Source: Spirochaetia bacterium (GTDB taxonomy: Bacteria; Spirochaetota; Spirochaetia; SZUA-6; Bin103). From it: a DNA stretch of 64,000 nucleotides. The stretch is taken from NCBI GenBank assembly GCA_965198005.1, contig CBDAOI010000003.1, forward strand, positions 864,001 through 928,000, written 5' to 3'. The notes beneath the pieces are model-generated. The model was not told where the DNA came from and made no database searches. It saw only the letters and a list, made by a program, of their open reading frames with translations. Each line of letters starts with the position of its first letter. Within the stretch, counting starts at the first letter, position 1. Of this stretch, positions 5,599 to 21,040 are shown one piece after another. The position numbers and the translations under genes were made by a program.

Positions 5599-6414
5599 TC
5601 ACGTACGCTGGATGGTGCGGTAGCGGCGCACCGCAAGCGGGGCGAACACGGCGATGATCGCCGCCGCCCACAGCAGCGTGTAGAGCACCGGATGCTGCAG
5701 CGGCCAGACCGCGGGATCCGGCGTACCCGGGGGGATGTTGCCGAACAGCTCGCGCGTCGCCTGGGTCACGGCCGACACCGGATTCCACAGGGCGAAGGTC
5801 CGCAGCACCGGCGGCAGGCTGTCGGCGGGCACGAAGGTGTTGGCCACGAAGGTCAGCGGCATCGTCACCATGAATGAGGCGTTGTTGATCACCTCGACGC
5901 TCGGCACCAGCAGTCCGACGTAGGCCATGATCCACGAGAAGGCGTAGGCGAACGCCAGCAGCAGCGCGAATCCCGCAACCCCCGGCAGCACGCCGGTGTC
6001 GATCCGCCACCCCACCACCAGACCGGTCAGCGCCATGATCAGCAGCGACGCCGCGTTGTACACCACGTCGCTGACCGTGCGGCCCACCAGCAGTGCGCTG
6101 CGCGACATCGGCAGCGACCGGAAGCGGTTCATGATCCCCTTCTGGAGATCCTCGGCCAGACCCGCGCCGGTGAAGATCGAGCCGAACACCACCGTCTGGG
6201 CGAAGATTCCGGCGATCAGGAACTCCCGGTACGAGCCGCCGGGAATGACGATCGAGCCGCCGAACACGTAGGCGAACAGCAGCACGAACATGATCGGCGA
6301 CAGCAGTACGAACACCAGCACCTCGGGCACGCGCTTGATCTTGATCACGTTGCGCCGGGCGATCACCACGGCGTCGGAGACCGCGTTGGACACCGCGTTG
6401 AACCAGCCGCTCAT
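5599..6414 (-). CDS. ABC-2 type exporter permease (DrrB-like)
   Basis: 'PIMFVLLFAYVFGG', 'RFRSLPMSR', 'WNPVSA'; coupled to the upstream ATPase. Confidence 0.9.
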   Translation of the reverse strand: MSGWFNAVSNAVSDAVVIARRNVIKIKRVPEVLVFVLLSPIMFVLLFAYVFGGSIVIPGGSYREFLIAGIFAQTVVFGSIFTGAGLAEDLQKGIMNRFRSLPMSRSALLVGRTVSDVVYNAASLLIMALTGLVVGWRIDTGVLPGVAGFALLLAFAYAFSWIMAYVGLLVPSVEVINNASFMVTMPLTFVANTFVPADSLPPVLRTFALWNPVSAVTQATRELFGNIPPGTPDPAVWPLQHPVLYTLLWAAAIIAVFAPLAVRRYRTIQRT

Positions 6415-7406
6415 GTCTCCTCCTCCTCCTCATCCTCGTTCTCCTGCGGTGCGGCGCTATGGCCGGTCAGCGTGAGGAACACGTCGTCCAGCGTCGGCCG
6501 GCGCAGGCCCACGTCGCGCACCGCCACCCCCGCCTGGTCCAGGGCGCGCAGCGCCTGCGTCAGCACCGGGGAGCCGCCGGCGATGGGCGTCACCACCCGG
6601 CGCGCGCGGGCGTCTACCTGCTGTTCCCCCACGGCGAACCGGGCCAGCACCGCGCGCGCCGCCGCCAGCGCCGCCGCCACGGCTGCCGCGGCCGCCGCCG
6701 GCAGCGTCACCTCGATCCGCTCGGCCCCGACCAGACCCTTCAACTCGTCGGGCGTGCCTTCGGCGATCGCCCGGCCGTGGTCGATCACCAGCACGCGGTC
6801 GGCGAGCTGGTCCGCCTCCTCCATGTACTGGGTGGTGAGCAGCACGGTGGTGCCGCTGCCCACCATCCGGTGGATCACCTCCCAGAGCTGGCGCCGGCTG
6901 TGCGGGTCCAGGCCGGTGGTCGGCTCGTCCAGGAACAGCACCGGCGGGTCGGCCACCAGCGCGCCCGCCAAGTCGAGGCGGCGCCGCATCCCCCCGGAGT
7001 AGGTCTTGACCGGCCGGTCCCCGGCCGCGACCAGATCGAACTGCTCCAGCAGTTGGCGGGCGCGTGCGCGCGCCGGCCGCCGGCCCAGGTGATACAGGCG
7101 CCCGATCATGTCGAGGTTCTCGAACCCGGTGAGGTGCTCGTCCACCGCCGCGAACTGGCCGGACAGTCCGATCCGCCGGCGCACCTCGCGCGGCGCCGCC
7201 ACCACGTCGGCGCCGGCCACCCGGGCCATGCCGGCGTCGGGTCTGATCAGCGTGGCCAGGATCGACACCGCGGTGGTCTTGCCGGCGCCGTTGGGACCGA
7301 GCACACCCAGCACCGCGCCCTCGGCCACGGCGAGGTCGAGCCCGTTCAGGGCGGTTACGTCTCCGTACCGCTTGACCAGTCCGGTGGCTTCGACGAGGTG
7401 TGCCAT
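6411..7406 (-). CDS. ABC exporter ATP-binding protein (DrrA-like)
   Basis: Walker A 'GPNGAGKTT', 'YSGGMRRRL', 'LDEPTTGLD', C-terminal 'PTLDDVFL'. Confidence 0.92.
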   Translation of the reverse strand: MAHLVEATGLVKRYGDVTALNGLDLAVAEGAVLGVLGPNGAGKTTAVSILATLIRPDAGMARVAGADVVAAPREVRRRIGLSGQFAAVDEHLTGFENLDMIGRLYHLGRRPARARARQLLEQFDLVAAGDRPVKTYSGGMRRRLDLAGALVADPPVLFLDEPTTGLDPHSRRQLWEVIHRMVGSGTTVLLTTQYMEEADQLADRVLVIDHGRAIAEGTPDELKGLVGAERIEVTLPAAAAAAVAAALAAARAVLARFAVGEQQVDARARRVVTPIAGGSPVLTQALRALDQAGVAVRDVGLRRPTLDDVFLTLTGHSAAPQENEDEEEEET

Positions 7407-7595
7407 GCGCCGCATGAAGCTATCGACAGCCGTCCCCCGCGGTCAACCTATACCCGCCCGGTACGCCCGGTACGGCGCGAACGAGCACCGACTGATCCCT
7501 CCAGCCATTCCATGTCGCGCTGGGTGGCGCTCAAGCGCTGCCGCAGCCGTCCCGGCGACGACGAGTGAGGATGCTTGGACAGGCGTCCGGCGGTC

Positions 7596-8441
7596 TCAGC
7601 GGAACAGGTCTTCGGTGCGTGGGCGGTTGATCATGGCCGCGGTGTGGGTGGCCGCGGCTGCCGTTGCCGGTGCGTGGGCCGGCGGTGGAAAGCCCTGCAC
7701 CAGGGCGGCCGGGATGCGCTCGGTGGATTCGCCCATTACCAGCATGGCGGCGCTGGCAATGGCGTCCGCCCGGTTGATAAGCGTGGCCTGCAGCTCGCGG
7801 CCGTACAGGTCGCGGCGGCCGCGGCGGTCGTCCAGCACCGCCAGGCCGGCGGCGCCGAGCGCGATGCCCACCGTGCCCAGCCGCCAGGGCCGGTTGCTGC
7901 TGTCGCTGATCACCACGCCGATCCGCTGGCCGGTGCCGGCGGCGATGGCCCGCTGCAGCCGGGCGGCGGTGGCGTCGGGCGCCGCCGGCAGCAGCAGCGC
8001 CGACGCGGACCGCCCGTGGTCGACGTTGGACTGGTCGATGCCGGCGTTGGCGGCTACCAGGCCGAGCCGGTGGCGGGTGATCAGCACGCCCGGGGCCGTG
8101 CGCACTACCTCGGTCGACTCGTCGAGGATGAGCTGCACCAGCCGCGCATCCTTGCCGGTCTCGGCGGCGAGGGCCGCGGCGCGGGCCGACGGCCGCACCT
8201 GGTCGAGCCGGAGCTGGCGGCCCTCCGCCTTGGAGACGATCTTCTGGGCCACCACCAGCACGTCGCCGTCGGCCAGTTCGACGCCGGCTCCGGCCAGCGC
8301 CGCCAGCAGGATCGGCGGCAGGTCGTCGCCGGCCGCCACCAGCGGAATCCCGCGCAGCCCGGTAACGGTGAGCCGGGCGTCAGCCACCTGCCGGGACGCC
8401 GCCGGCCCGGTCTCGTCGCGTGTGCCGGGAGCCGCCTGCAA
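7596..8441 (-). CDS. cofE: Coenzyme F420-0:L-glutamate ligase
   Basis: 'GDVLVVAQKIVSKAEG', 'ANAGIDQSN', 'DLYGREL', C-terminal 'EDLFR'. Confidence 0.93.
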   Translation of the reverse strand: MQAAPGTRDETGPAASRQVADARLTVTGLRGIPLVAAGDDLPPILLAALAGAGVELADGDVLVVAQKIVSKAEGRQLRLDQVRPSARAAALAAETGKDARLVQLILDESTEVVRTAPGVLITRHRLGLVAANAGIDQSNVDHGRSASALLLPAAPDATAARLQRAIAAGTGQRIGVVISDSSNRPWRLGTVGIALGAAGLAVLDDRRGRRDLYGRELQATLINRADAIASAAMLVMGESTERIPAALVQGFPPPAHAPATAAAATHTAAMINRPRTEDLFR

Positions 8442-8453
8442 CCGACTAGGCCG

Positions 8454-9113
8454 CTAGCCCTGGCCGACCACGCGGATACCGGCGTGGCTGAGGTCGTGGC
8501 GGCGATTGATCTGAATCAGCACGCTGGTCAGCGCCTCGGCGGCGGCGGAGTTCTCGATCGGGCCGGCGTGCCAGCCGGTCATGCCGGCGGCTTGAACCAG
8601 CTCGATCACTTTGTCGCGGGCCGCCTTCTTGTTGCCGGCGACCAGCACGTCGCACTCGATCGTGACCTCCTGCTGCAGCAGGTGGGCGGCGACGTTCTGA
8701 AACGCCGAGACCACCATCACCTCGTCGCCGAGGAACTCCTGCGCCCGCTGGCCGGCGGAGCCCTGCGCCGGGAGTTGCACCGTGCCGACCCGAGGCGGCA
8801 CCAGCGGCACCGTGACGTCGATCAGGATCTTGCCCGCGAGGCTCGGCTGCACGCTCGCCAGGGTGGCGATCTGATGCGCGGCCGGCACGGTCAGCACCAC
8901 GACGTCGGCCGCCTGCGCGGCCGCCTGGTTGGTCAGCGCGCGCGCGGTGGCGGCCGGATCGCGCTGCCGCAGACCGGCGAGCGCGGCCTGCGCCTTGGCC
9001 AGCGTGCGCGAGCCGATCAGCACCGTGTAGCCGGCCCGCGACCAGCGCTGCGCCAGCCCGGTTCCCAGGTCGCCGGTGCCGCCGAGAATGGCGATGGTTT
9101 CCCTAGTTGACAA
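8454..9113 (-). CDS. npdG: NADPH-dependent F420 reductase
   Basis: 'IAILGGTGDLGTGLA', 'IGSR', 'DVTVPL', 'SAFQNVAA', 'EALTSVLIQIN'. TTG start at 9113. Confidence 0.9.
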   Translation of the reverse strand: MSTRETIAILGGTGDLGTGLAQRWSRAGYTVLIGSRTLAKAQAALAGLRQRDPAATARALTNQAAAQAADVVVLTVPAAHQIATLASVQPSLAGKILIDVTVPLVPPRVGTVQLPAQGSAGQRAQEFLGDEVMVVSAFQNVAAHLLQQEVTIECDVLVAGNKKAARDKVIELVQAAGMTGWHAGPIENSAAAEALTSVLIQINRRHDLSHAGIRVVGQG

Positions 9114-9588
9114 TGGTCTCTCCCTCCACCAGGTTCTCTCGCTCCACCAGCCGCACCCCGGCGCCGCGCACCGCGCAGTCACACGCCGGACAGTAGTAGC
9201 CGACCTGGATCGGCGTCCCGCACGCGCGGTGCACCAGCGCGCCGCGGTCGGACAGGTGCTTGCGGCCCCACACCGCGAGCGCGCCGGCCACCACCCCCAG
9301 CTCGTGGCCGCGGCGGGTCAGCGCGTACTCGGCGCGCGGCGGATGCTGGCTGTAGAACCGCCGGTCCACGATGCCGTGCCGTTCCAGCCGCTTGAGCCGG
9401 TGCGACAGGATGTTGGGCGCGATTCCGAACACCTGCCGCCGCAGCTCGGCGAAGCGCTGGAAGCCGCGCAGCAACTCCAGCAGGATCAGCACCGTCCAGC
9501 GGTCGCCGACGATCTCCAGCGCCCGTGCCACCGGACCGAGGCGGTCGTCCGCGGCGCCGGTGTGGTCGGCGATCGGGTTGGTTGACAT
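9103..9588 (-). CDS. HxlR-family winged-helix transcriptional regulator
   Basis: 'ARALEIVGDRWTVLIL', 'RF..L', 'PPRAEYALT', C-terminal 'HRACG...CPAC'. Confidence 0.9.
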   Translation of the reverse strand: MSTNPIADHTGAADDRLGPVARALEIVGDRWTVLILLELLRGFQRFAELRRQVFGIAPNILSHRLKRLERHGIVDRRFYSQHPPRAEYALTRRGHELGVVAGALAVWGRKHLSDRGALVHRACGTPIQVGYYCPACDCAVRGAGVRLVERENLVEGETIVN

Positions 9589-9652
9589 TTGCTACCTGGT
9601 TGCATCCTAATACGTACGGTCCGCACCGTCCAGGTTGGGTGCCGCTCGTTCC

Positions 9653-10549
9653 ATGCACGCATCGGTCTCGATTGTCAACGTCAGCAAGGTGTTCCCCGTG
9701 CCGCCGGGGGCCACGCGCACCGTCACGCCCGCCGCCGCCTCGGCCGCCACAGCCGTAGCGCCGGCTGACGCTCCTCCCGGTAGGCGCCGCCAGCGCCGCC
9801 GCCGGCCGCGCGACCTGCTGGCCGCGCCGGCAGCCGGGCTCGAGGCGCTGCGCGGAATCACCGCCGACATCCGTCCCGGCGAGTTTCTCGCGGTCCTTGG
9901 CCCCAGCGGCTGCGGCAAGACCACGCTCCTGCGCATCGTCGGCGGCCTTATCGAGCCGACCGCGGGCACGGTCCGCATCGGCGACCGGACGGCCGCCCAG
10001 GCGCAACGGCAAAAGTGGGTGGGCTATGTATTCCAGGACCCGTCGCTGCTGCCGTGGCGCACCGTGCTGGACAACGTGCGCCTGCCGCTGCGGGTGAACC
10101 GCGCGGTGCAGCGTCCCGGCGCCACTTCGCCCGAGGAGTTGCTCCACTTGGTGCGCTTGGCGGAGTTCGCCGACTATTACCCGAGCCAACTGTCGCGCGG
10201 CATGCAGCAGCGGGTCGGCTTGGCGCGGGCGCTGGCGCTGGACCCCGCGTTGCTGCTGATGGATGAGCCGTTCGCCGCGCTCGACGAGATCACGCGCGAA
10301 CGGATGCGCTTCGAGCTGCTGCGCATCTGGGAGGCGACGCGCAAGACGGTGCTGTTCGTTACCCACAGCATCGTCGACGCGGTGCTGCTGTCCGACCGCG
10401 TGGCGGTGCTGTCGGCCCGTCCCGGACGGCTGCGCGCGGTGCTGCCGATCGGCCTGGAACGGCCGCGGGTGGCCGGAGTGGAACGCTCGCCGGAGTTCAC
10501 GGCCGCCTACCGCCGGGTGCACGACTTGGTGATGGCGGAGGCGGCCTGA
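9653..10549 (+). CDS. ABC importer ATP-binding protein (TauB/SsuB/NitT family)
   Basis: 'GPSGCGKTT', 'VFQDPSLLPW', 'LSRGMQQRV', 'MDEPFAALD', 'FVTHS'. Confidence 0.9.
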   Translation: MHASVSIVNVSKVFPVPPGATRTVTPAAASAATAVAPADAPPGRRRQRRRRPRDLLAAPAAGLEALRGITADIRPGEFLAVLGPSGCGKTTLLRIVGGLIEPTAGTVRIGDRTAAQAQRQKWVGYVFQDPSLLPWRTVLDNVRLPLRVNRAVQRPGATSPEELLHLVRLAEFADYYPSQLSRGMQQRVGLARALALDPALLLMDEPFAALDEITRERMRFELLRIWEATRKTVLFVTHSIVDAVLLSDRVAVLSARPGRLRAVLPIGLERPRVAGVERSPEFTAAYRRVHDLVMAEAA

Positions 10550-11334
10550 TGCGCGCCGCCCAGCGCCCCCTGGCCCAGCCCACGGCGGCGCTGCTTCCCA
10601 CCGTGCTCAGTCTGCTGGTGGTCGGGGTCGTCTGGGAGGCCTGGATCGCAATCGCGGGCACGCCGGTCTACATGCTGCCTGCCCCTTCGGCGGTGGCGGT
10701 CCGCGTGAGCGCGGAGCCCGGCTACTTTCTGGGGCAGGGCGCGATCACGCTGGCGGAGGCGCTCGGCGGCTTCCTGCTCGGGACCGGCGTGGCGCTGGCC
10801 GCGGCCACGCTGATGGCGCACTCGCGCGCCCTGGAACGCGCTCTGTTGCCGCTGGCCGTGCTGGTCAAGGTGACGCCGATCGTGGCGGTGGCGCCGCTGC
10901 TGGTGATCTGGTTCGGGTTCGGTGTCGTGCCCAAGGTGCTGATCGCGTCGTTGATCACCTTCTTTCCCGCGCTGGTGAACGGGGTGACCGGACTGCGCGC
11001 GGTCAATCCCGGTGCGCTGGACTTTCTGCGCTCGGTGTCGGCGTCGCGGCGCGAGGTGTTCCTGACCCTGCGCGTGCCGAGCGCCTTGCCCTACCTGTTC
11101 GCGGCGTTCCGGGTGTCGATCCCGCTGTCGGTGATCGGCGCGGTGGTGGGCGAGTGGTTCAGCGCCGACCGCGGCCTGGGGGCGGTGATCATCGTCGCCC
11201 ATGCGAATCTCGACACCCCGACCCTGTTCGGGGCGATCTTTACTCTGGCGGTCATGGGCATCGGCCTGAGCCTGGCCGTCGCGGCATTGGAACGGAGGAT
11301 ACTGTTTTGGCACGAATCGACACTCATCGTGTGA
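10549..11334 (+). CDS. ABC importer permease (TauC/RibX-like)
   Basis: 'LPAPS', 'TPIVAVAPLLVIWFGFG', 'FFP', 'PSALPYLF', 'GAVVGEW'. Confidence 0.9.
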   Translation: MRAAQRPLAQPTAALLPTVLSLLVVGVVWEAWIAIAGTPVYMLPAPSAVAVRVSAEPGYFLGQGAITLAEALGGFLLGTGVALAAATLMAHSRALERALLPLAVLVKVTPIVAVAPLLVIWFGFGVVPKVLIASLITFFPALVNGVTGLRAVNPGALDFLRSVSASRREVFLTLRVPSALPYLFAAFRVSIPLSVIGAVVGEWFSADRGLGAVIIVAHANLDTPTLFGAIFTLAVMGIGLSLAVAALERRILFWHESTLIV

Positions 11335-12419
11335 CGGCCGGTGCGACACTCGGTGCGCCCCGGTTGCCGTTGCTGCGCGCCCGGCGCGCGTGGCTGGCGC
11401 TGGTGCTGGCGGCGGTGGCCGCGAGCCCGGCGCCGGCGACCGGCAAGCTGGAGATCGAGCAGGCGGCGGACCAGCCCGCGGCGGCGCAACCACCGCGCAG
11501 CATGATCTTCATGGCGGGCTTCAAGCCGCAGGCGAACCTGCCGTTCGTGGCGGCTTACGTGGCGCGGGAGAAGGGATACTTCGCCGCGCAGGGGCTCGAC
11601 GTCACCATCCACCACTCCACCGGCCAGCACCTGCAGCTCCTCCTCTCCGGCGAGGTCGACGTCACCACCGCCGCCGCCGGGTCGGTGCTCAAGCGGCGGG
11701 CGAATCCCGGCGTCCCGATCCGGGCGATCGCGCTGTTCGGGCAGCGCGGCCAGCAGACCTTCATCGCGCTCGCGGACTCGGGCATCACCAGCCCGCGCGA
11801 CTGGGAGGGCAGGACCTTCGGCTACCGCATCAGCCTGCCGCCCGAGTACCTGGCGCTGCTGGACGCCGCCGGCGTGGACCGCGCGCAGGTGCGGGAGGCA
11901 CGGGTGGGCTTCGATCCGCGCCTCCTGGTCGAGGGCCGGGTGGACGTGCTGGCGGTGTTCAAGTCGAACGAGCCCGACACCATCCGCAAGCTCGGCTTCG
12001 AGGTGGTGCAGTTCGATCCCGCCGACTTCGGCATCCCGGCGCTGGGACTCACCTACGTCACGCGCGAAGATCTGATCGCGGAGGAGCCGGACCTGATCGC
12101 GCGCTTCCTCAAGGCCACGCTCAAGGGGCTGGAGTTCTCGTTCGCGCATCCGGAGGAGACGCTGGACATCGTGCTGCGCTACGCCGAGAACGAGGACCGC
12201 GACCACATGCGGTTCATGCTGGAGGCGGAGCAGGCCGACGCCGTCTCTGCGGTCACGCGCGATCACGGGCTGGGCTGGATGACGCGCCGCCAGTGGCAGG
12301 AGTTCCACGACCTGCTGCTGCGGTACCAGGCGCTGGACCGGGAGCTGGACGTGGAGCAGGTGTTCACCGCGCGATTCCTGGAGGCGGCGTACCAGGACGG
12401 CCGCCTGGTCTGGCCATGA
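11331..12419 (+). CDS. ABC substrate-binding protein, NMT1/THI5-like (RibY/ThiY-related)
   Basis: Signal peptide, then 'YVAREKGYFAAQGLDV', 'ITSPRDWEGR', 'FLKATLKG'. GTG start overlaps the permease stop. Confidence 0.85.
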   Translation: MTAGATLGAPRLPLLRARRAWLALVLAAVAASPAPATGKLEIEQAADQPAAAQPPRSMIFMAGFKPQANLPFVAAYVAREKGYFAAQGLDVTIHHSTGQHLQLLLSGEVDVTTAAAGSVLKRRANPGVPIRAIALFGQRGQQTFIALADSGITSPRDWEGRTFGYRISLPPEYLALLDAAGVDRAQVREARVGFDPRLLVEGRVDVLAVFKSNEPDTIRKLGFEVVQFDPADFGIPALGLTYVTREDLIAEEPDLIARFLKATLKGLEFSFAHPEETLDIVLRYAENEDRDHMRFMLEAEQADAVSAVTRDHGLGWMTRRQWQEFHDLLLRYQALDRELDVEQVFTARFLEAAYQDGRLVWP

Positions 12420-12427
12420 CCCAGCCC

Positions 12428-12795
12428 GCTGTGGACCGGCCGGGCCGTGACCTTCGACGGCAGCTGGCACCGGGTGCCCGACGCCGGCCTCAACCCGCTG
12501 CCGGTGCAGCGCCCGATCTCGCTCTGGTTCGGCGGCGGGGAGGAGCGCGTGCTGCGCCGCATCGCGCGCTTGGCCGACGGCTGGATGCCGCAGTTTCAGC
12601 CGGACGAGGCCGGCCGCTCGCTCCTGGCCCGCATGCACGGCTACGCCCGCGAGCACGGCCGCGACCCGGCCGCGATCGGCCTCAACGGCCGAATCGTCTC
12701 GGCCTGCGCGGCGTCGAACAGCACGTCGCACTGCTGGAACGATTTCATGTCGCAACGAACCGCGCAGCACCGCGCACGGGGTCACCGTAGTCGAC
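12428..12795 (+). pseudogene. Internally deleted copy of the LLM-class F420-dependent oxidoreductase
   Basis: Near-identical to 18608-19066 but missing the 5' half and a segment near the 3' end. Confidence 0.9.
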
Positions 12796-13004: not shown

Positions 13005-13688
13005 TCACCTCGGTACCGTGGCCGGCAGCGCCGGCAGGGCGCGCCGCATCCCGGCCCAGGTGGCGGCCTGGCTCTGTGCCAGTTCGGCGGCGAGCGCCTC
13101 GTCCACGCCCAGCCGGCTGGCGGCGGCGAGCTGGGCGAACTGCAGCGCCGAGGTGCCCTTGGTGACCGCCGCGTAGCACATCTTGAGCGCCGACGCGCGC
13201 CCGATCGCGCCGCCCAGGTCGCGCACCACGAGGCCGCCTCCCTCCAGCGGCGCCAGCAGGTGAGCGTCCGAGCCGGAGGTGTAGAACCGCGGTCCGCTGC
13301 CGTTGGCCGGCGGCCCGCCGATGATGCCGGCGTCGACGTAGGCGGCGCGGGTAGCTCCGATCAGCGCCGTGATGCGCTCCGTGGTAGCGGGCGCGATGGC
13401 GTTGCAGTCGGCATAGGGCGGGGTGGCGCCGGTCGCCGTCATCGCCTGCGCCACCCCGCTCGCTGCCGCCACCACCGCCGCCGGCGGCATGATCGACAGC
13501 ACCAGGTCGGCCTGGGCCAGCAGCGCGCCGACGCTGCCCAGGTCGCGGATACCCGCCCCGGCGGCCAGCCCGCCGGTGCGCGGCGACCGGCCGGCGAGCG
13601 AGGTAACCACGTCGAAGCCGCGGCTGCCGAGCAGCCGTCCGACCGCGTGCCCCATGTTGCCGGGGCTGATGATCGCGATTGTCTTCAA
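13005..13688 (-). pseudogene. NAD(P)-dependent oxidoreductase (6PGD/3-hydroxyisobutyrate DH-like, DUF1932), C-terminally truncated
   Basis: AGGAGG RBS and TTG start; 'IISPGNMG', 'DCNAIAP', 'DAGIIGGPP', 'ASALKMCYAAVTKG'; ends early. Confidence 0.75.
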
Positions 13689-13803
13689 GACGAGCCTCCT
13701 GTGTAATCGACCCGATTCAATGCTCGCCGTTCCCAGATCGTACGCAGCACCGGTGGGTCGCGTCATGCGTCGCGGACGCGACCGGATCCGCCGTCAATCG
13801 TCG

Positions 13804-14200
13804 TCACCCGGCTGGCCGAGTCGGCGCTGTACGACGCCGCGGTGCGCCTTGCCCTGCAGGCGTTGTTTGCGGGAGGCGCGGGATGGGGCGGGTCGCTTGC
13901 CGGGGCCGGGGTTCGGCGAGCGCCTGCGCAATGAGCGCCGACAGCCACGCGCGCGCGTCGTGGCGGTTCGCCTCTTGGGCGCGAAACCGGCGCCCGGTGA
14001 TCACCGGCGTCGCGTGCGTGGTGACACGCGTGTCGGCGATGCGCACCAAGCGCCGCCGCACCTCCGGCGCCAGCGACGGGAAGCGGGCGGCGTCGAAGCG
14101 GAGCTGCACTGGGGTGGCCACTTCGTTCACGTTCTGATCGCCCGGGCCGCTGCTCTGCACGAACCGTTCGGCGAGTTCCTCCTCCGGTATGGCAATCCAC
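13804..14200 (-). pseudogene. arfB: Degenerate alternative ribosome-rescue peptidyl-tRNA hydrolase ArfB
   Basis: 'IPEEELAERFVQSSGPGDQNVNEVAT.VQLRF', 'R.QEANR.DA', 'RPRQATRP'. GGQ reads GDQ and the basic tail is lost. Confidence 0.8.
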
Positions 14201-14289
14201 GCCGCGATCTGCACGACGCACGCTACGACGAAGCACGTCGGTGCGCACCGTAGCCGGTCCACCCACACGAAGCACCGTAGGCCTCATTC

Positions 14290-14604
14290 TCAATCATGGA
14301 TAGATGCGCGGTGGGGTTGGTAGGCCAGTCCAAGCTCCCGGTAGAGTTGCTGTCTCAAGCCCGGTTTCACCCGATGCGTATTGAGGTACATCTGTGTCTC
14401 GAACGAGACTATCCGCCGGCGGCGCTTCCGCCAATTCTTGGAGCTGACCTCCCGCACCTCAACCGGCGTCCGCACGAAGCGCTGCACCGCCGCCTCGAAT
14501 GTCAGATCGCCCGTATCAACCTCGACCGGCTTCTCCTTCTCATCGTTCGTCGGCTCATAGTCGTGTGCCGGCACCTCGATCACACGTTTCTTGCGTCGCC
14601 TCAT
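14290..14604 (-). CDS. Small hypothetical protein
   Basis: GGAGG RBS before the ATG; 104-aa ORF with no confident family. Confidence 0.45.
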   Translation of the reverse strand: MRRRKKRVIEVPAHDYEPTNDEKEKPVEVDTGDLTFEAAVQRFVRTPVEVREVSSKNWRKRRRRIVSFETQMYLNTHRVKPGLRQQLYRELGLAYQPHRASIHD

Positions 14605-14864
14605 GGCTTCGTCCTCCGCGGTGTATGGGTTGACCTCCCACCCCGTGTCCGTACAATGATGCCCAAACGAAATTCGACCATCGCGTCTCGGTTCATGCCG
14701 GGTCGCTGGTCGAACACAACAGCCGCGTGAGGGCGGAGGCTAGCTATAGCTACCTCGGCCCGCGGTGAATAGGTCAGACCCAAGATCACCTCTGTGCTGA
14801 GCACGCGGTGGTCCAATCTCAACACGGCCCGGCACCTTTGCGTCCGGGCCACGGGAGGAATCGC

Positions 14865-17920: not shown

Positions 17921-18144
17921 GAGGACCGCGACCACATGCGGTTCATGCTGGAGGCGGAGCAGGCCGACGCCGTCTCTGCGGTCACGCGCGATCACGGGCT
18001 GGGCTGGATGACGCGCCGCCAGTGGTGGGAGTTGACCTGCTGCCGCGGTACCAGGCGCTGGACCGGGAGCTGGACGTGGAGCAGGTGTTCACCGCGCGAT
18101 TCCTGGAGGCGGCGTACCAGGACGGCCGGCTGGTCTGGCCATGA
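17921..18144 (+). pseudogene. Duplicated 3' end of the NMT1-like SBP gene
   Basis: Near-identical to 12192-12419 with small indels. Confidence 0.9.
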
Positions 18145-18164
18145 CCCGGCCCGTAAGGTAGGTT

Positions 18165-19073
18165 ATGAGAATGAAACTGGGCGTGGTTTTCCCGCAGATC
18201 GAGATCGGCGCGGACCCGGGGGCGGTGCGCGCGTACGGGCAGGCGGTGGAGCAGCTCGGCTACCACCACATCCTGGCCTACGAGCACGTGGTCGGCGCCA
18301 ACACCGCCAGCCGGCCCGAGTGGCGCGGGCCGTATGACCTCGACTCGCTGTTCCACGAACCGTTCGTGCTGTTCGGCTACCTGGCGGGGTTGACCGAGCG
18401 GATCGAGTTCGCCACCGGCATCGTGATCCTGCCGCAGCGCCAGACCGTGCTGGTGGCGAAGCAGGCCGCCGCGCTCGACGTGCTGAGCGGCGGCCGGCTG
18501 CGGCTCGGGATCGGCATCGGCTGGAACCGGGTCGAGTACGAGGCGCTCGGCACCGATTTCCACAACCGCGGCCGCCGCTGCGAGGAACAGGTCGCGCTGC
18601 TGCGCGCGCTGTGGACCGACCGGGCGGTGACCTTCGACGGCGCTTGGCACCGGGTGACCGACGCCGGCCTCAACCCGCTGCCGGTGCAGCGCCCGATCCC
18701 GCTCTGGTTCGGCGGCGGGGAGGAGCGCGTGCTGCGCCGCATCGCGCGCTTGGCCGACGGCTGGATGCCGCAGTTCCAGCCGGACGAGGCCGGCCGCGCG
18801 CTCCTTGCGCGCATGCACGGCTACGCCCGAGAGCACGGCCGCGACCCCGCCGCGATCGGACTCAACGGCCGGATGGTGGCCGACCCCGCCGCGGCCCACA
18901 CCTGGACCGGCCGCATCCGCGCCTGGCGGGAGATCGGGGCCACCCACCTCAGCATCGACACGATGCGCCTCGGCCTGCGCGGCGTCGAACAGCACGTCGC
19001 ACTGCTGGAACGATTTCATGTCGCAACGAACCGCGCAGCACCGCGCACGGGGTCACCGTCGTCGACTCCATGA
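18165..19073 (+). CDS. LLM-class F420-dependent oxidoreductase
   Basis: 'GVVFPQIEIG', 'YEHVVG', 'HEPFVLFGYLA', 'ILPQRQTVLVAKQAA..DVLSGGRLRLGIGIGWN', 'ADGW'. Confidence 0.9.
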   Translation: MRMKLGVVFPQIEIGADPGAVRAYGQAVEQLGYHHILAYEHVVGANTASRPEWRGPYDLDSLFHEPFVLFGYLAGLTERIEFATGIVILPQRQTVLVAKQAAALDVLSGGRLRLGIGIGWNRVEYEALGTDFHNRGRRCEEQVALLRALWTDRAVTFDGAWHRVTDAGLNPLPVQRPIPLWFGGGEERVLRRIARLADGWMPQFQPDEAGRALLARMHGYAREHGRDPAAIGLNGRMVADPAAAHTWTGRIRAWREIGATHLSIDTMRLGLRGVEQHVALLERFHVATNRAAPRTGSPSSTP

Positions 19074-20574: not shown

Positions 20575-20925
20575 TCAGGCATAGCCGCCGGCCATGATGC
20601 GGTCCAGATAGGCATGCACCTGGTCGGCCCTGCCTTCGCGCACCAGAAGATCGGGGGTAGCGCCGCCGAAGCCCGGCAGCGGCTCGGCGCGGAACCAGGC
20701 GTAAGCCGCGAGCGGCGATCCGGTTGCCGTTTCCACGCGATTGAGAATCTCCAACATCTGGCGCAACCGGACCTGGGTCTTGCGCGCCCGGACCCGCGAC
20801 GCGCGCGTGAACGCATCCTTGCCGAGGCCCAGCGTGCCGGCGATCTCGGACTTGGTGGTACGCAGCCCGTCGGCGATGAGCGACGGAGAGAACACCTGAT
20901 CCTGGACGAATTCCTGAAACCTCAT
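20575..20925 (-). CDS. Xre/MbcA/ParS-type antitoxin
   Basis: C-terminal 'AYAWFRAEPLPGFGGATPDLLV..GR...V..YL...GGYA'; upstream of the RES gene. Confidence 0.85.
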   Translation of the reverse strand: MRFQEFVQDQVFSPSLIADGLRTTKSEIAGTLGLGKDAFTRASRVRARKTQVRLRQMLEILNRVETATGSPLAAYAWFRAEPLPGFGGATPDLLVREGRADQVHAYLDRIMAGGYA

Positions 20926-21040
20926 TTCTGGCACCTCATACTTCTTGACATACCGTGATTCTGGTTGTCGTTCCAGGTGGCTCAACGCCTCCTCGACCAG
21001 CCGACAGCCGGTGAAACGATACTCGCGGCCTCGCGGCTAT

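Follow-up and report, generated by a model that had tools for sequence, protein, structure and literature searches.

Here, we describe a gene cluster in a 64,000-nucleotide stretch of DNA from a Spirochaetia bacterium (GTDB lineage Bacteria; Spirochaetota; Spirochaetia; SZUA-6; Bin103), namely positions 864,001 to 928,000 of the forward strand of contig CBDAOI010000003.1 in assembly GCA_965198005.1; this whole stretch is called the window. In the cluster, genes for the use of the deazaflavin cofactor F420 lie divergent from the genes of an ATP-binding cassette (ABC) transporter with a substrate-binding protein (SBP). Comparison across genomes makes it rather likely that this candidate system imports a deazaflavin, and the transporter is probably the first recognisable importer of F420 or its precursor Fo. 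The interval 7596-12419 delimited in the initial annotation runs exactly from the end of cofE through the end of the SBP gene. Its arrangement of an hxlR-npdG-cofE group divergent from an ABC importer across about 64 bp was confirmed, the gap to the ATG of the ATPase gene being 64 bp (Table 1). Reading frames were picked by domain matches and third-position GC in this GC-rich window (0.68-0.73 around the locus). G and L numbers below are our handles for genomes and loci, respectively.

Table 1. Features of the locus, in positions of the window (LLM, luciferase-like monooxygenase)
Feature	Position	Strand	Basis or remark
cofE, predicted F420-0:L-glutamate ligase (tail-building enzyme)	7596-8441	-	PF01996, 244.7 bits; TIGR01916, 254.9 bits (cut-off 180.65)
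npdG (Fno), NADPH-dependent F420 reductase	8454-9113	-	TIGR01915, 177.9 bits (cut-off 149.8)
hxlR-family transcription regulator	9103-9588	-	PF01638, 90 bits; first gene of the hxlR-npdG-cofE unit
64-bp divergent control region (putative)	9589-9652		Imperfect palindrome GCTACYTGRTTGC between TTGACA-like and TAATA-like boxes
ABC ATPase, NitT/TauT (SsuB/TauB-like) type	9653-10549	+	PF00005, 109.4 bits; ATG start
ABC permease (BPD_transp_1; SsuC/TauC-like)	10549-11334	+	PF00528, 87.4 bits
SBP, NMT1/THI5 (ThiY-like)	11307-12419	+	PF09084, 143 bits
LLM gene remnant, degraded partial copy (pseudogene)	12420-~12799	+	TIGR03619 positions 129-218 of 247, 73.4 bits
Duplicated SBP 3' end	17921-18153	+	blastn; stands before the intact LLM gene
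Intact TIGR03619-family F420-dependent LLM oxidoreductase	18165-19073	+	276.4 bits (cut-off 166.9)

The product of cofE scores as a whole protein above the TIGR01916 equivalog cut-off and matches the solved CofE structures 2phn and 7uld with 181 bits. By sequence it is an F420-0:L-glutamate ligase, predicted to catalyze the GTP- and metal-dependent glutamylation of F420-0. NpdG matches the Fno of Thermobifida (5n2i) with 127 bits, and its Rossmann N-terminus IAILGGTGDLG fits the pattern GGTGxxG. With the npdG start placed at TTG 9113, which is preceded by GGAGG, npdG overlaps the end of hxlR by 11 nt, and cofE starts 12 nt past the npdG stop; the three genes are therefore read as one transcription unit. 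The 64-bp spacer and its palindrome are kept in an alignment of five Spirochaetia loci and constitute a putative operator/promoter region of both divergent units. On the other side, the best NCBIfam matches of the ABC ATPase are TauB-like and SaoA-like, all under their own cut-offs. The SBP, whose start (TTG 11307) is preceded by GGAGGA, shows the features of the ThiY-like class, i.e., the PF09084 domain, a two-lobe periplasmic-binding fold, and an operon shared with a BPD_transp_1 permease and an ABC ATPase. None of the seven genes is disrupted in this genome, and alignments with their orthologs in the related loci L001-L003 span most of the gene length. The genes are under purifying selection, with dN/dS ratios of 0.13-0.34 across all seven against three congeners (cofE 0.30-0.34, npdG 0.19-0.24, permease 0.13-0.14, intact LLM 0.18-0.20).

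Two local peculiarities of these genes were observed. The ABC ATPase carries an Ala/Pro/Arg-rich insert of about 45 residues (residues ~20-65, window 9700-9830) between its N-terminal strand and the Walker A motif. Extra length is also found in relatives (298-324 aligned residues in L001-L003 and L005, compared to about 230 in Dehalococcoidia). In one congener, npdG and hxlR are separated by an inserted HIT-domain gene (L001:7175-7729, minus strand; PF01230, 74.5 bits), and other, unannotated open reading frames (ORFs) stand at this place in L003 and L005. HIT proteins are nucleotide hydrolases or transferases.

The host genome (G000; 4 contigs, 4.89 Mb, 90.44% complete) combines a broad potential for F420 use with a lack of recognisable synthesis genes. 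CofD (PF01933), CofC (PF01983), CofG (TIGR03550), and CofH (TIGR03551) had no match in the whole genome. The initial statement that cofC, cofD, cofG, and cofH are missing from the window thus holds and extends, by profile search, to the entire genome; the genome-wide check that had been suggested also returned neither CofD (0/10) nor CofH above its cut-off (0/10) in the congeners. As judged from these profiles, the host is predicted to be unable to make F420 itself. At the same time, 13 luciferase-like matches were detected, 12 of them intact genes. The best NCBIfam match was an F420-class family for 11 of the 12; three of these score above the cut-off, and seven of the remaining ones reach 208-229 bits against the TIGR03560 cut-off of 231.4. 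The F420-class LLM genes lie on all four contigs. PF04075 (FDOR-A) had no match in the genome, but its control was also silent in 14 genomes, which makes this search uninformative. For four RNA libraries from a single study with the label sponge metagenome, contigs of the Logan resource show 0-3 differences to several parts of the locus. They cover npdG (8767-8933), the ATPase gene (10034-10427), the SBP gene (11310-11462 and 12267-12478), and the intact LLM gene in pieces of up to 873 nt. These contigs are a weak hint of habitat and of expression of the locus, as carry-over DNA is possible and neither strand nor level can be read from them; stretches that they leave uncovered, such as 13798-14719, carry no information.

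The distribution of the genes among related genomes is consistent with a functional package. In a sample of 31 genomes of the order, 11 of which belong to the genus, one set of seven genomes (G000, G001, G003, G005, G006, G007, and G008), all from the one genus, holds an SBP ortholog (77-82% identity), CofE (245-253 bits), NpdG above its cut-off, and 2-10 TIGR03560-like LLMs per genome; the other 24 genomes have none of the four. Four of the 11 genomes of the genus lack the package, including two single-contig genomes (G009 and G010). Two carriers are likewise single contigs (G001 and G007; 98% and 97% complete), and missing contigs therefore do not explain the absent biosynthesis genes. CofH was above its cut-off in none of the 31 order genomes and CofC was found in none of the five spirochaete carriers searched. 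A CofD-family match was present in a single order genome (1/31; G020, 40 bits), in none of the 11 genomes of the genus, and in none of the seven carriers. A second CofE-fold gene in the host genome (G000:C4:38185-38793; L095) scores 202 bits with TIGR04132 (cut-off 350), a family of putative folate metabolism gamma-glutamate ligases, and only 115.2 bits with TIGR01916. It was not counted as a second CofE, since it fits the folate-type family better, and is probably a FolC2-type enzyme. Copies of this gene (~102-120 bits) occur in 10 of the 11 genus genomes (not in G004), including genomes without the F420 package.

Relatives of the SBP are numerous, with 2691 of 8000 scored candidates matching at E 1e-5 or better. 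The best 80 loci comprise four from Spirochaetia/Spirochaetaceae and 76 from Dehalococcoidia, SAR202, or Chloroflexi/Chloroflexota (54-70% identity). In a tree of 69 SBP sequences (midpoint root only; the 76 Chloroflexota loci thinned to 25), the five spirochaete proteins group together as a clade (SH-aLRT 100) inside a larger clade of Chloroflexota sequences (SH-aLRT 95). The tree neighbours of the spirochaete clade are sequences whose loci also have a divergent hxlR, and 13 of the 76 Chloroflexota loci have an hxlR homolog next to the transporter or divergent from it. This pattern would fit a transfer of the hxlR-transporter unit, presumably from Chloroflexota.

The downstream end of the importer operon has been reshaped in this genome. 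The importer operon had initially been read as continuing into an F420-dependent LLM gene, which is the case in the congeners and not in the window. In L001, L002, and L003, the full LLM gene aligns directly 3' of the SBP gene (with MetRS as the next gene in L001), orthologs of the intact LLM adjoin the SBP in G001, G005, G006, G007, and G008, and L005 has an LLM-fragment match at the same spacing from the SBP. Here, the adjacent LLM is only a remnant, which scores below the TIGR03619 cut-off of 166.9 and has deletions of 450 nt and 88 nt relative to the intact copy (blastn). The intact copy is displaced to 5.7 kb downstream of the SBP gene, beyond an interval that includes a lower-GC part (0.61-0.63). 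Window positions 17921-19027 align to L001 10919-12040, and 12309-12428 corresponds to 18034-18153 at 97.5% identity (blastn). Based on these alignments, the segment 12800-17920 is interpreted as a local rearrangement with partial SBP-LLM duplication, for which an assembly effect is possible.

Within this segment lie a minus-strand NAD_binding_2/DUF1932-type gene (13005-13766) and small ORFs, where relatives hold MetRS and other genes. Nearby, a small minus-strand ORF (20575-20985) encodes an Xre/MbcA/ParS antitoxin C-terminal domain (PF09722, 36 bits). Directly downstream of cofE, a DrrA-type ABC ATPase and an ABC-2 permease occupy 5599-7415 on the minus strand (TIGR01188, 357 bits; cut-off 312). 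This pair is inverted relative to L001 and L003, where it stands on the other side of the locus, and its adjacency to cofE is thus not conserved.

The broken LLM could be the first sign of decay in an F420 cassette that was acquired horizontally and no longer has a function. Such decay would suit the nesting of the genus SBP clade in Chloroflexota sequences, the lower-GC segment that splits the operon, and the four genus genomes without the package. We nevertheless regard it as highly improbable, because the seven genes are intact and constrained, the intact LLM copy has been retained, F420-class LLMs have multiplied to 2-10 per genome, and RNA-library contigs match npdG, ATPase, SBP, and LLM, the last being a weak hint in view of possible DNA carry-over.

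The pattern was also examined in Dehalococcoidia. We evenly drew 151 genomes from the class of one Dehalococcoidia carrier (completeness filter of at least 85%) and counted a genome as SBP carrier if it had a family-profile match at E 1e-60 or better. The SBP was found in 39 genomes, CofE in 79 (77 above cut-off), and CofD in 68 (65 above cut-off); CofH and CofG were above cut-off in 39 and 38 genomes, respectively. CofE was present in 39 of 39 SBP carriers as compared to 40 of 112 non-carriers. All 39 SBP loci were mapped by tblastn, and 122 ORFs from 15 loci were also scored against NCBIfam. In 22 genomes, cofE-npdG lies beside ATPase-permease-SBP, divergent as in the window in 21 and co-directional in one. 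Four genomes have a single operon ATPase-permease-SBP-cofD-cofC-npdG-cofE, five have the layout cofD-cofC-(LLM)-SBP, and eight have no F420 biosynthesis gene in the flanks examined (two with an adjacent LLM, one with hxlR). In at least three arrangements, 31 of the 39 carriers have cofE/npdG or cofD/cofC no farther than about 5 kb from the SBP. The proposed check of whether SBP homologs are linked to F420 genes is answered positively for this class sample and negatively for the 76 closest loci considered below. Stand-alone nitroreductase-type genes were seen in two of the clusters. The gene at L102:11423-12079 matches the FbiB C-terminal domain TIGR03553 with 148 bits (under cut-off) and BluB TIGR02476 with 88 bits, and the one at L107:7446-8138 matches only BluB (59.8 bits). 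These matches hint that the dehydro-F420-0 reductase step may be encoded in some Dehalococcoidia clusters as well.

The SBP and Fo synthase, i.e., CofG or CofH above cut-off, largely replace each other. Among the 79 CofE-positive genomes, 36 have Fo synthase only, 36 have the SBP only, three have both, and four have neither (G057, G106, G124, and G172). In the 72 CofE-negative genomes, the SBP is absent (0) and Fo synthase occurs once. The same counts for CofH alone are 35/36/3/5 (Fisher's exact p 1.3e-13, kinship uncorrected). The CofE gene tree implies a minimum of 10 changes of SBP state, five of them forced by well-supported branches. CofH is missing from all 33 chromosome-level genomes that carry the closest SBP orthologs, and completeness is therefore not the explanation for this closest clade; a CofD-family gene is present in five of five chromosome-level carriers searched. 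Genomes that keep CofC, CofD, and CofE without Fo synthase need Fo from outside, and the transporter appears in the place of the synthase. The initial suggestion that the transporter scavenges F420-0/F420 or Fo hence gains support from the absent biosynthesis genes, the linkage of the SBP, and this complementarity.

The transporter might instead import the substrate of the neighbouring F420-dependent LLM (a small heterocycle or a sulfonate-like compound) as part of a catabolic or detoxifying module, with F420 obtained via another route. NitT/TauT-family ABC transporters often serve LLM monooxygenases such as SsuD. An LLM gene directly follows the SBP gene in congeners, stands between cofC and the SBP gene in three Dehalococcoidia loci, and lies beside the transporter in G036, G144, and G171. 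This explanation is unlikely in our view, as it accounts neither for co-operonic cofD-cofC in nine of the 39 loci nor for the exclusivity with Fo synthase (36/36/3/4) and the presence of CofE in 39 of 39 carriers. No other candidate F420 importer was found (TIGR03868, see below, is above cut-off in 0/5 genomes). In the window, moreover, the LLM has been split from the SBP, yet the transporter is intact and constrained.

Several observations weigh against the deazaflavin reading, beginning with the SBP fold. In the AF2 model (pLDDT 88.6), residues 23-38 form a helix, residues 43-54 are modelled with low confidence, and the folded domain starts at about residue 64. We interpret the helix as a probable signal or anchor and the low-confidence residues as a probable linker. 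The top Foldseek matches of the model (probability 1.00, 22-26% identity) are ThiY of Bacillus halodurans (3ix1), which binds N-formyl-4-amino-5-aminomethyl-2-methylpyrimidine (FAMP), and the thiamin-bound SBP of C. difficile (4nmy). TM-scores to these two are 0.65-0.66 normalised to the model and 0.78-0.79 normalised to the target, and the sequence matches have E values of 1e-32 (3ix1) and 4e-29 (4nmy). Thi5, TauA, SsuA, and PqqT, a binder of pyrroloquinoline quinone (PQQ), follow further down the structure matches. The nearest solved relatives accordingly bind thiamin-related pyrimidines, and to our knowledge no ligand described for the NMT1/ThiY fold is as large or as anionic as F420-n. Yet relatives bind thiamin (4nmy), FAMP (3ix1), and PQQ (9b1v), so that small heterocyclic cofactors are known cargo of this fold.

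A ThiXYZ-like importer of hydroxymethylpyrimidine (HMP)/FAMP or thiamin, adjacent to F420 genes by chance or shared regulation, would agree with ThiY 3ix1 and 4nmy being closest by sequence and fold and with thiE standing beside the SBP gene in two of the 39 class loci (G167 and G050). ThiXYZ indeed shares both the fold and the transporter family. Identity to the two structures is only 22-26%, however, and the strongly conserved SBP N-terminal motif FMAGFKPQANLPFV departs from the aligned ThiY segment. No Rfam family reached its gathering score anywhere in the window, and searches of the window and of 18 homologous loci returned neither a thiamin pyrophosphate (TPP) nor a flavin mononucleotide (FMN) riboswitch. 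Linkage to thi genes in 2/39 loci also contrasts with 31/39 for F420 genes, and the phyletic pattern tracks CofE and Fo synthase. Thiamin-related import is thus very unlikely. In G167, the SBP frame runs on into a ThiE domain (L099:4511-6181, minus strand; 556-aa ORF), which may be a genuine fusion or two merged frames; this locus also has thiE and thiO as neighbours, and npdG-cofE lies divergent from the transporter.

Fo is an analogue of riboflavin, and the closeness of the two compounds makes some cross-binding likely. A RibXY-type riboflavin importer therefore deserves consideration. RibXY of Chloroflexus aurantiacus (Caur_0816-0817) rescued an E. coli riboflavin auxotroph (ribB mutant), and RibXY orthologs were recognised by a conserved FMN riboswitch (PMC4418817). 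The present system resembles RibXY(Z) in its COG0600 permease and COG0715 NMT1-type SBP and in its occurrence in Chloroflexota, and would also share with it a tricyclic ribityl vitamin as ligand and the import of a finished cofactor precursor; the likeness is judged by COG family. The system differs in that the FMN riboswitch is missing here and in that the present family travels with cofE, npdG, cofD, and cofC and replaces Fo synthase. The host genome also has a lumazine synthase (PF00885, 175.8 bits), and the distribution of the transporter tracks F420 genes. We consider riboflavin as the principal substrate to be hardly probable, and a deazaflavin remains the favoured ligand.

Further points against the deazaflavin reading concern the closest Chloroflexota loci. 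By tblastn, none of the 76 has cofE within up to 10 kb (several are short contigs), and they contain a single npdG-like match (35% identity, L078) and one weak LLM-fragment match (36%, L024). CofD and cofC are absent among the annotated neighbour families of the closest loci, neither having been used as tblastn query there. Clustering of the neighbours of the 80 closest loci gave no F420 signal; those that recur are housekeeping genes for a phosphoribosyltransferase, 3-dehydroquinate (DHQ) synthase, phosphofructokinase (PFK), TauE, and the S-adenosylmethionine (SAM) cycle. For this clade, only the genome-level pattern speaks for F420. SAM riboswitches, the only Rfam matches in the 18 homologous loci, are located downstream of the transporter in two Chloroflexota loci (L022:10235-10352 and L057:4581-4696), in the region where the SAM-cycle neighbours (SAM synthetase, AdoHcy hydrolase) recur.

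The class sample has its own discordant cases. Three genomes (G038, G073, and G094) hold SBP and Fo synthase together, and seven of the 39 carriers lack CofD (G037, G062, G088, G127, G129, G167, and G182), with a partial match in G090. The CofD-negative carriers are scattered over the SBP tree and form no single SBP subclade; given the completeness filter of at least 85%, some absences may be gaps. Kinship inflates the co-occurrence counts. On well-supported branches of the CofE gene tree, five independent contrasts, about 4.6 of them as expected and none opposite, give a sign-test p of 0.0625, which is not significant and is the minimum reachable with five pairs. Among the spirochaetes, whose genomes are kin, one gain followed by losses may account for the genus pattern, and the host genome is only 90.44% complete. 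Fo import alone cannot explain CofE in this host, and the ligand is less certain here than in Chloroflexota. CofE requires the lactyl carboxylate of F420-0, and Fo alone would leave CofE idle because CofC and CofD are missing. Finally, the importer role is drawn from context, co-occurrence, and complementarity, with ligand and transport being predictions from genomic data.

Uptake of a deazaflavin would proceed as follows. The ATPase, the permease, and the ThiY/NMT1-type SBP would import a deazaflavin made by other community members. CofE would add or re-extend the gamma-glutamyl tail, by which the cofactor would be trapped in the cell and its affinity to enzymes raised. NpdG would charge the cofactor with NADPH, and the approximately 11 F420-class LLM oxidoreductases scattered over the genome would consume the F420H2. 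Both divergent units are probably under the control of the HxlR-type regulator, acting at the 64-bp region between them. In Chloroflexota that possess CofC, CofD, and CofE and lack Fo synthase, the imported substrate would be Fo. In the spirochaete lineage, the imported species would already have to carry the phospholactyl group, as in F420-0 or short-tailed F420. The odds that this host takes up F420-0 or F420-n rather than Fo appear about even, and an unrecognised replacement of CofC and CofD in the host is possible. Most economically, recognition by the SBP would depend on the deazaflavin head group, with different side chains being accepted, so that Fo or F420-0/short-tailed F420 would be bound depending on the host. 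We infer the ligand, the direction of transport, the regulation, and the role of CofE in retention from the combined genomic evidence.

Analogous solutions exist for other cofactors. In folate salvage, FolC/FPGS adds gamma-glutamates to retain and activate an imported short-tailed cofactor. CofE would take the role of FolC in the proposed scheme, by analogy only at the level of strategy, as enzymes and transporters are unrelated. PqqT (9b1u, 9b1v) is likewise an SBP that scavenges a tricyclic redox cofactor made by others and belongs to the same fold family (Foldseek E 8e-14 to 1.6e-13), but it shares only 15-16% identity and differs in ligand and genomic context. The salvage idea itself underlies the NCBIfam 'putative F420-0 ABC transporter' (TIGR03868, periplasmic; TIGR03869, permease; TIGR03873, ATPase), which was predicted by comparative genomics. 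This is a different ABC family, of the siderophore/B12-like kind. The best TIGR03868 match in the five genomes searched was 24.6 bits (cut-off 392.4), and a TIGR03873 match of 120.2 bits (cut-off 372.4) was discarded, as it falls on the unrelated DrrA-type ATPase.

The initial remark that no characterised F420 importer is known stands insofar as none was found described, and needs amending insofar as this predicted family was already in NCBIfam. No described Fo/F420 importer was found in full-text searches outside subscription journals, including the accessible parts of PMC8498797, PMC8859854, PMC5395668, PMC4418817, and PMC10658910. In the accessible text of a 2021 FEMS review on F420, no mention of uptake, scavenging, auxotrophy, or spirochaetes was found, and the sole mention of a 'transporter' there concerns a possible exporter in Paraburkholderia. 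Suboptimal uptake of Fo has been noted in yeast, with shared routes with riboflavin suggested (PMC8859854).

The architecture of the system is that of an ordinary ABC importer; what is likely new is its substrate class and the lifestyle that it implies. It is intriguing to propose that the system founds a widespread family of deazaflavin importers, that about half of the F420-using Dehalococcoidia/SAR202 acquire Fo from neighbours instead of making it, and that the spirochaetes live on ready-made F420-0/F420, a generalisation that we hold to be somewhat more probable than its opposite. F420 biology has so far been told through the producers. A recognisable importer would alter the way genomes are read, since cofE without cofG/H is now scored as an incomplete pathway. 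SAR202 are known for large LLM families, and the proposed import would, if true, explain their source of deazaflavin. The importer would also be a practical tool, as feeding of Fo/F420 to engineered hosts is limited by poor uptake (noted in yeast; PMC8859854). For the organisms themselves, many Dehalococcoidia/SAR202 would be Fo auxotrophs, and the spirochaete genus would be auxotrophic for F420, whose tail it repairs. If this is true, a sponge-associated spirochaete lineage has pared its F420 genes down to those for importer, tail ligase, recharging enzyme, and F420 users, a cofactor auxotrophy not described before, and Fo/F420 would be a traded 'vitamin' in marine and sponge communities.

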